Shown: piece by piece, positions 5,971 through 6,210 of the stretch
Numbering within the stretch: position 1 is the first letter of the stretch
How the letters are laid out: each line of letters opens with the position of its first letter
UHGV virus genome: UHGV-0112027
Direction: 5' to 3' (one strand)
DNA from: a virus
DNA length: 12,469 nucleotides
The notes under the pieces: model-generated
Database searches by the model: none
The model's input: only the letters and a program-made list of their open reading frames with translations
Told to the model about the DNA's origin: nothing
Position numbers and translations under genes: made by a program

Positions 5971-5999
5971 TTGCTTTCATGTGACAAAGAGAACATAAT
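5971..5999 (+). promoter_or_regulatory. Candidate sigma70 promoter for the cargo cassette (TTGCTT, 17 bp, CATAAT)
   Basis: -35 TTGCTT at 5971-5976, 17-nt spacer, -10 CATAAT at 5994-5999; sits between the cI stop and the cargo ORFs. Confidence 0.35.
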
Positions 6000-6030
6000 T
6001 TGTACAGTCAGTTCTCTATGGAAAATCATC

Positions 6031-6210
6031 ATGTTCAAGAAAATTTTGAAGAAAGTGAAATCAGAGACGCCTTCACATGGTGTGGATGAACTCATTCAAC
6101 TTTTCGATGAGATAGATGAAAAGCAAAAAAGAATTCGCGAGGAAAAAGAAAAATTTAGAGAGGATTGGCAAAATGGAGCTCGAACAACAAAGCACAGATT
6201 CACTATTTGA
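6031..6210 (+). CDS. Small highly charged hypothetical protein (59 aa), overlaps the start of the 285-aa cargo ORF
   Basis: In-frame ATG at 6031 within track ORF 5953..6210; K/E-rich (EIDEKQKRIREEKEKFREDW); weak RBS; could be non-coding. Confidence 0.3.
   Translation: MFKKILKKVKSETPSHGVDELIQLFDEIDEKQKRIREEKEKFREDWQNGARTTKHRFTI

Follow-up and report, generated by a model that had tools for sequence, protein, structure and literature searches.

A candidate self-contained two-gene cassette with a conserved promoter-like element behind the cI repressor gene of a lambdoid Escherichia coli prophage

Introduction

Does the cargo carried in the immunity region of a lambdoid prophage depend on transcription that reads through the repressor gene, or can it bring a promoter of its own? 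And when a short open reading frame (ORF) overlaps the start of the main cargo gene, does it encode a protein partner or only a leader? Both questions are raised by the virus genome UHGV-0112027, of which a stretch of 12,469 nucleotides (nt) was analyzed in full (the window; all coordinates count from its first letter). Downstream of a cI repressor gene, this window carries a promoter-like element, an ORF of 59 amino acids (aa) and an overlapping gene of 285 aa, which we assign to the DUF6414 family. The cI-N region is a mosaic hotspot that houses prophage abortive-infection genes such as rexAB and bstA (PMC8585504), and DUF6414 is found in one protein of the Dodola defense system, the other being ClpB-like (bioRxiv 10.1101/2024.10.26.620412; PMC11514479).

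Our analysis suggests that the two genes and the promoter-like element make up a self-contained moron cassette, with its own promoter and encoding a pair of proteins that resembles toxin-antitoxin (TA) or abortive-infection (Abi) modules and is a candidate for self-repression. We give this overall explanation a probability of roughly 0.6. The coordinates of the features are collected in Table 1.

Results

The cassette and its promoter-like element

Genome comparison delimits the cargo at both ends. In a megablast search with cI and its downstream flank, the same cI was found in 716 E. coli genomes, and every alignment breaks off at 5877-5883, which is the cI stop codon; on the right, only 7053-7100 is common to about 1500 genomes. 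Sister prophages with the same cI have a DUF4411 protein, or a hypothetical protein together with DUF3037, in the slot; the complete cassette is present in 7 of 5426 E. coli genomes. Taken with the other cargo in sister prophages and a GC content lower than that of the window, the two edges mark 5882-7052 as a discrete exchangeable unit, with the promoter-like element inside it.

The element consists of TTGCTT and CATAAT separated by a 17-nt spacer, 90 nt downstream of the cI stop codon. An earlier note, made from the letters of this DNA, had placed it at 5971-5999 downstream of cI, and these coordinates are exact. The same note had called it near-consensus, which was overstated: 8 of 12 hexamer positions match (3/6 in the -35 and 5/6 in the -10), and the element is not among the hits of a consensus scan. 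Only its conservation sets it apart from chance. Across 20 distinct enterobacterial cassettes, the only invariant blocks are TTG, the 17-nt spacer, CATAAT and ATG. When 78 nt around CATAAT are aligned for these cassettes, mean column identity is only 66%, with an isolated invariant T 2 bases past the ATG, and the ATG of the small ORF lies 31-37 nt past CATAAT.

The genes next to the cassettes differ. Among 42 neighbor proteins scanned (36 upstream, 6 downstream), 13-18 of the upstream ones have repressor domains, of at least three kinds (S24-type cI, short helix-turn-helix (HTH) proteins and others). Because the hexamers are invariant in cassettes behind different neighbors, the putative promoter is one that travels with the cargo. 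The earlier suggestion that the cargo may be expressed independently of PRM read-through has thus become the natural reading, given that similarity to cI ends at the stop codon and that the hexamers are kept in 20/20 cassettes behind different repressors. From the usual spacing after a -10, transcription is predicted to start at about 6004-6007. An alternative promoter, GTGACA-16-TACAGT at 5981-6008, is the sole consensus-scan hit in the stretch; it was rejected, as its positions vary among relatives.

A dyad over the -10 and predicted start

The earlier note did not include a dyad that lies over the -10 and the predicted start. The sequence AGAGAAC-N16-GTTCTCT forms an inverted repeat of 7 bp without mismatch, centered on 6002/6003, whose arms flank the -10 and the predicted start site. 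In the window alone the dyad is only marginal, being matched by 27 of 500 shuffles. Perfect arms of 7-10 bp are present on the same axis in 15 of the 20 cassettes and on none of 24 further axes that served as controls. The core GAAC-N15/16-GTTC persists, and the outer bases of the arms co-vary, giving AAGGAAC/GTTCCTT, GGAACAT/ATGTTCC and GAACATA/TATGTTC.

With its left arm situated upstream of the predicted start and a motif unlike the cI operators, the dyad looks like a candidate operator for a cassette-encoded or host factor. We consider cI an unlikely binding factor: OR and OL use a AATAGCAAT-type repeat, AGAGAAC has no second copy in the window, and the dyad travels behind different repressors.

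It is possible, though we doubt it, that the dyad is not an autoregulatory operator and is instead an RNA hairpin that affects processing or stability of read-through transcripts, a site for a host factor, or a DNA site for self-immunity similar to aba. The hairpin does appear in both the minimum-free-energy and the centroid RNA folds; in the cassette's own transcript, however, the left arm would be missing, and arms of 7-10 bp around a 16-nt loop make a weak RNA structure. One variant (L043) pairs only through G-T/G-U, whereas the GAAC/GTTC core is conserved as sequence, beyond what pairing would explain. The small protein has no obvious DNA-binding fold and aba of bstA is likewise located at the 5´ end of its gene (PMC8585504), but the axis of the dyad keeps a constant offset from the -10, a typical trait of operators that block access of RNA polymerase.

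The two genes as a unit

Conservation of the small ORF in homologous loci had been proposed as a check on the small ORF, and it holds widely. The comparison drew on 14 genome loci and 48 loci from viruses or prophages, all with DUF6414 relatives at 25-100% identity, and counts are given over 63 loci. An upstream ORF on the same strand ends inside the first DUF6414 codons in 60 of these; of the other three, one is truncated, one is a gene fragment and one is ambiguous. The linkage spans Enterobacteriaceae, Neisseriales, Orbales and Alphaproteobacteria, with hosts in the genome-contig records that include Kluyvera, Citrobacter, Scandinavium, Craterilacuibacter, Candidatus Schmidhempelia, many Alphaproteobacteria and an Acidobacteriaceae metagenome-assembled genome. 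Serratia, Klebsiella and Raoultella are among the hosts of protein homologs. No other gene is consistently linked to the pair in the related loci.

In Alphaproteobacteria, the pair directly follows a transposase gene of the IS1595 family (DDE_Tnp_IS1595), and the transposase stop overlaps the small-ORF start in the sequence ATGA. Two loci (L009:2216-4264 and L013:2820-4911) have the transposase gene, the small ORF and the DUF6414 gene between terminal inverted repeats of 28-29 nt (GGTATTTATATACGTGCTTGACC...), with the right repeat at the DUF6414 stop in L009 and a few nt past it in L013. The pair is the entire passenger load of these insertion sequences (IS) of 2.05-2.09 kb. Because the two genes are all that the IS carries, this arrangement argues strongly that the small gene and the DUF6414 gene form a functional unit. 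An IS1595-type transposase is also found upstream in L008 and L012. In the window the pair is not an IS1595 passenger, as cI lies upstream and the edges are those of the phage backbone.

This mode of carriage also brings up an explanation that we judge unlikely, namely that the pair is an accessory or maintenance module of mobile elements (for example, a DNA-binding OB-fold protein and a regulator that aid transposition or stability) and is merely carried in the prophage slot. The operon with the transposase inside the inverted repeats fits such a role, but the enteric cassettes have no transposase and have their own promoter. The OB-fold-like domain in the structure model suggests nucleic-acid binding and there is no PADLOC match, yet the enteric cassettes are in a slot known for abortive-infection genes, and DUF6414 is part of a defense system that has been validated experimentally according to the literature (bioRxiv 10.1101/2024.10.26.620412).

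Probable read-through from cI

No terminator was found in the stretch from cI to the small ORF, and 5882-6050 has an unremarkable RNA fold (z +0.53). Because of the missing terminator, read-through from PRM probably adds to expression of the cassette. We consider it quite improbable that such read-through is the only source of transcription, with TTGCTT-17-CATAAT inactive, the cargo expressed solely from PRM or PRE through cI as for lambda rexA, and the conserved block serving as another binding site or an RNA element. The open path from cI, the ordinary fold and the modest consensus match are all compatible with this possibility, and bstA has been assumed to use the repressor promoter (PMC8585504). 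However, the positions conserved in 20/20 cassettes are those vital for sigma-70 (TTG, the 17-nt spacer, and A2 and T6 of the -10) while the flanks vary, and the cassette is also found without any nearby repressor gene, where its own promoter would be needed. There is no Rfam match at E<=1 in 5700-7400.

The small gene and its overlap with the DUF6414 gene

The 59-aa ORF, which the earlier note had described as rich in lysine and glutamate, is confirmed, with 10 K, 5 R, 8 E and 4 D. The predicted protein is 46% charged, its character running from basic at the N-terminus through acidic in the middle to very basic at the C-terminus, which has the motif G-A-R-x4-R-F-x-I. Its length is 59-72 aa in most lineages, and an FDEIDEKQ core is invariant in the enteric members. 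In 18 distinct enteric sequences, none has a stop in the small frame and all 18 have stops in each of the other frames. The pooled ratio of nonsynonymous to synonymous substitution (dN/dS) for these sequences is 0.30 in the small frame versus 0.85 and 0.95 in the other two, and variability by codon position follows the order 3 > 1 > 2. This pattern of selection identifies the small ORF as a real protein-coding gene.

The overlap with the 285-aa gene is 38 nt and in another frame, as previously noted, and both proteins leave their mark on it. In the DUF6414 motif DSL(F/Y)DF, the conserved codons for (F/Y)-D supply, in the other frame, the stop codon TGA of the small ORF, which has a constant position with respect to this motif across all loci. 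The DSL(F/Y)D codons likewise dictate the four final residues of the small protein. In the upstream part of the overlap, the columns of the small-protein motif G-A-R-x4-R-F score 0.91, 0.66, 0.91 ... 0.89, 0.94, versus 0.4-0.7 for DUF6414 residues 1-8, for which these bases also code. Codon-position variability in the overlap (0.44/0.16/0.48) has the pattern of the small frame, not that of the DUF6414 frame. The Shine-Dalgarno sequence of the DUF6414 gene is also within the small ORF; its GAGG core ends 9 nt before the ATG at 6173, and the matching codons (E-E-W or E-D-W) are conserved in relatives.

The earlier note had left two possibilities, a two-component module of small partner and effector, or a leader. 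Because of the coding evidence for the small ORF, the leader can be set aside and the two-protein module is favored, in keeping with the conserved C-terminal motif and the DUF6414 linkage. That the small ORF is only a translated leader (an upstream ORF) that tunes DUF6414 initiation through the overlap, with a functionless peptide, is highly improbable: the DUF6414 ribosome-binding site and start are inside the small ORF, so its translation must affect DUF6414 initiation, and its final residues and stop are forced, but purifying selection acts on amino acids outside the overlap, lengths and motifs are kept across phyla, conservation of the C-terminal G-x-R motif exceeds that of the overlapping part of DUF6414, and a separate PHROG family exists for the small protein.

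An AlphaFold2 model of the small protein is helical over nearly its whole length, with helices at residues 2-12 and 16-58 (pLDDT 72.5). In 2 of 7 E. coli genomes, RefSeq names the protein (L001:7150-7329, equal to window 6031-6210) "regulator of G-protein signaling domain-containing protein", a name that is almost certainly spurious and derived from the K/E-rich helix. A PADLOC match of the small protein to PDC-S46 (E 0.008) was rejected as low-complexity K/E noise. Two ORFs on the minus strand, 5928-6095 and 6073-6195, are not conserved and were also rejected. Within the cassette, 6094-6120, which encodes IQLFDEIDE, the best-conserved motif of the small protein, is 74% identical over 27 nt to 6425-6451, which encodes the conserved DUF6414 helix INFLDKLDE (residues 85-93). 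This likeness could be due to chance between amphipathic acidic helices, or to mimicry or duplication.

The DUF6414 gene

The 285-aa gene is where the earlier note had placed it, but its family had been missed. The protein matches Pfam PF19952 (DUF6414) with 41.3 bits (cut-off 25; E 2e-10) over residues 12-240, RefSeq also assigns DUF6414, and the protein is a full-length member of phrog_9699 (E 3e-73). In the structure model, an alpha/beta protein, there is an OB-fold-like barrel, and residues 32-78 form a disordered segment rich in S, T and K. An alignment of 21 homologs puts the start at the Met of 6173. A start at ATG 6116, giving 304 aa and with an equivalent in entry P0029, was rejected: the family alignment begins at 6173, and upstream of there this frame is not under purifying selection (dN/dS 0.85) and has stops in 18/18 relatives. 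Some database entries have a DUF6414 protein of 298-304 aa from the equivalent of ATG 6116, and entry P0010 is a chimera of three reading frames of this region, with indel errors in A-runs the probable source.

A profile search of 1.84 billion representatives gave 1432 relatives at E<=1e-3; among these, the 150 listed have a single domain each and are mostly 260-350 aa long. In a profile search for distant relatives, the best 120 matches were to the close subfamily only. The phage collection has only homologs of ~30% identity, in Bordetella, Moraxella and Acinetobacter phages, and all are annotated as hypothetical.

The immunity region

The window represents the immunity region of an E. coli prophage of the lambdoid kind, which in RefSeq genomes is integrated beside tRNA-Thr and proA. 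The cassette is located between cI and the OL-type operator array and is co-oriented with cI, the slot of rexAB in lambda. The OR and OL arrays are both built on the AATAGCAAT-type repeats, and the leftward early genes kil, gam, bet and exo lie beyond the OL-type array. The PL-like promoter at OL is a good one. Between the cI stop and the backbone terminator, the slot is a hotspot of exchange, with other cargo in most of the ~1500 genomes that share the right flank (L064:3767-5391). Because the predicted intrinsic terminator downstream of the DUF6414 gene is inside 7053-7100, which is common to these genomes with other cargo, it is part of the common phage backbone and not of the cassette, and it is predicted to end the cI/cargo transcription unit. 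On the other side of cI, the gene in the cII position (4281-4826, minus strand) is named "toxin YdaT domain-containing protein" by RefSeq. It adjoins the cro-like HTH gene, an arrangement as in the ydaS/ydaT pair of the Rac prophage.

Table 1. Positions of the cassette, its parts and the surrounding immunity-region features in the window
Feature	Position	Strand	Remarks
Cro-like gene	4851-5084	minus	
OR-type operator array	~5111-5160		
cI repressor gene (HTH_3 + Peptidase_S24)	5189-5881	plus	prophage repressor
Whole cargo cassette	5882-7052	plus	~1.17 kb, 38.9% GC (window 48.9%)
-35 hexamer TTGCTT	5971-5976	plus	TTG invariant in 20/20 distinct cassettes
Dyad left arm AGAGAAC	5988-5994	plus	overlaps first base of -10
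-10 hexamer CATAAT	5994-5999	plus	invariant in 20/20 distinct cassettes
Dyad right arm GTTCTCT	6011-6017	plus	just past predicted start site
Small gene, 59-aa charged protein	6031-6210	plus	phrog_29688 full length, E 3e-19; PGAP coding sequence
Shine-Dalgarno AGAGAGGA of DUF6414 gene	6157-6164	plus	inside small ORF (R-E-D codons)
Dual-coding overlap	6173-6210	plus	38 nt
DUF6414 family gene, 285 aa	6173-7030	plus	ATG 6173, stop 7030
Intrinsic terminator	7063-7080	plus	6 G-C pairs, then TTTTCTTTT; within 7053-7100
OL-type operator array	7216-7265	plus	repeats OR array 5111-5160; 74% identity over 50 nt
PL-like promoter TTGATA-17-TATTAT	7231-7259		within OL-type array

Discussion

We consider it very likely that the small gene and the DUF6414 gene form an autonomously promoted operon. 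In a lysogen, transcription would start near 6005 and be held down by binding at the dyad. One mRNA, ending at 7063-7080, would give two proteins, each gene having its own ribosome-binding site, and ribosomes translating the small ORF would pass over the GAGG site of DUF6414. A product of the cassette, or a complex of the two proteins, could repress the promoter through the dyad. The two proteins most likely act together; the small helical protein may be a binding partner or antidote-like regulator of the OB-fold DUF6414 effector, and the module could be expressed in the lysogen as a TA-like abortive-infection, defense or addiction system. The prophage might benefit by excluding other phages or by stabilizing itself.

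These steps deserve different degrees of confidence. The edges of the cassette, the conservation of promoter and dyad, the coding nature of the small ORF and its close linkage to DUF6414 are established by the sequence comparisons. The architecture, the genomic slot and the link to Dodola are the reasons to think of phage defense or addiction, a function for which we see even chances. The specific antidote-effector mechanism is tentative and, to our minds, doubtful. The same caution applies to a broader conjecture, which may well turn out to be wrong: that the 59-aa helical protein and DUF6414 are an unrecognized autonomous defense or addiction system, widespread in Proteobacteria through the prophage repressor slot and IS1595 elements, in which the small protein takes the place of the ClpB-like partner and restrains a nucleic-acid-sensing OB-fold effector, with the pair self-repressing via the dyad. 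The C-terminus of the small protein, basic and then hydrophobic, presumably resembles the tails recognized by ClpX. A ClpX-like tail would tie a protease-labile antidote to the Clp-type partner of Dodola.

Several observations weigh against a self-contained, self-repressing TA-like or Abi-like cassette. Promoter sites of equal quality are no rarer than expected, with 15 in the window versus 19.4 +/- 4.1 in shuffles. The dyad is absent or weak in 5 of the 20 cassettes, and the model of the small protein has no recognizable DNA-binding fold of the ribbon-helix-helix (RHH), HTH or AbrB type. The Shine-Dalgarno sequence of the small ORF is weak here (GGA) compared with AGGAG, GGAG and GGGG in relatives. 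No PADLOC defense model fits either cassette protein, the DUF6414 protein having no match at E<=1, and no Dodola model matches any of 26 diverse members of the family. Neither cassette protein belongs to a known toxin or antitoxin family in Pfam, NCBIfam, PADLOC and PDB sequence searches. Finally, the pair has no adjoining ClpB-like or AAA+ gene, whether in this window or in the 62 related loci.

If the module is active, it would be a compact new member of the prophage-encoded immunity and addiction systems. The cassette also suggests that a conserved, probably autoregulated promoter can be brought along by cargo in the lambdoid cI-N hotspot, which then need not rely on PRM, with consequences for predicting the expression of prophage morons. 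Carriage by IS1595 elements suggests a route by which such modules could spread beyond phages.

How does the cassette compare with known systems? In lambda, the abortive-infection genes rexA-rexB are located between cI and OL/tIMM and have an internal promoter, PLIT. The cassette described here is in the same slot, co-oriented with cI and followed by a backbone terminator before OL/PL, and it is likewise a two-gene immunity-region cargo with a promoter besides PRM. Unlike rexAB, it has no RexA or RexB Pfam match at E<=1, neither of its proteins looks membrane-like, and its promoter precedes both genes.

The organization is also reminiscent of type II TA and Abi operons: a small upstream gene overlaps a larger one, a dyad lies across the -10 and predicted start of the sigma-70 promoter, and the whole is a compact, self-sufficient unit carried on prophages and IS elements. 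In contrast to type II TA systems, the pair has no known toxin or antitoxin domain, the modeled small protein is of another build than the RHH, HTH and AbrB-type folds, and the two genes share 38 nt where 1-4 nt are usual.

BstA-aba of the Salmonella prophage BTP1 offers another parallel, as this defense gene directly follows the prophage repressor and has a short functional DNA element at its 5´ end (PMC8585504). BstA, however, is a single, larger and unrelated protein, and aba spans the gene start whereas the dyad is on the promoter.

Both proteins are full-length members of PHROG families (phrog_29688 and phrog_9699) that are listed as being of unknown function, and their pairing is unrecorded in that database. 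In the literature searched, neither the small partner nor the pairing, the promoter with its dyad or the IS carriage is described; DUF6414 is mentioned only with regard to Dodola, and no paper on the mechanism of Dodola was found.

Dodola is the system to which the DUF6414 protein itself points. The protein scores above the curated threshold for the domain, and both systems are two-gene modules on mobile DNA. The two are set apart by the partner gene and by the curated models: the DUF6414 gene here is followed by the terminator and OL, with no large co-directional neighbor in the 62 related loci and no AAA+ or Clp family among the scanned neighbors, and PADLOC DolA and DolB models match none of the 26 members. 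The partner is instead a 59-aa helical protein, encoded upstream and overlapping the start. If the cassette is active, the uncharacterized DUF6414 of Dodola would thus gain a second and much simpler two-gene context, in E. coli.

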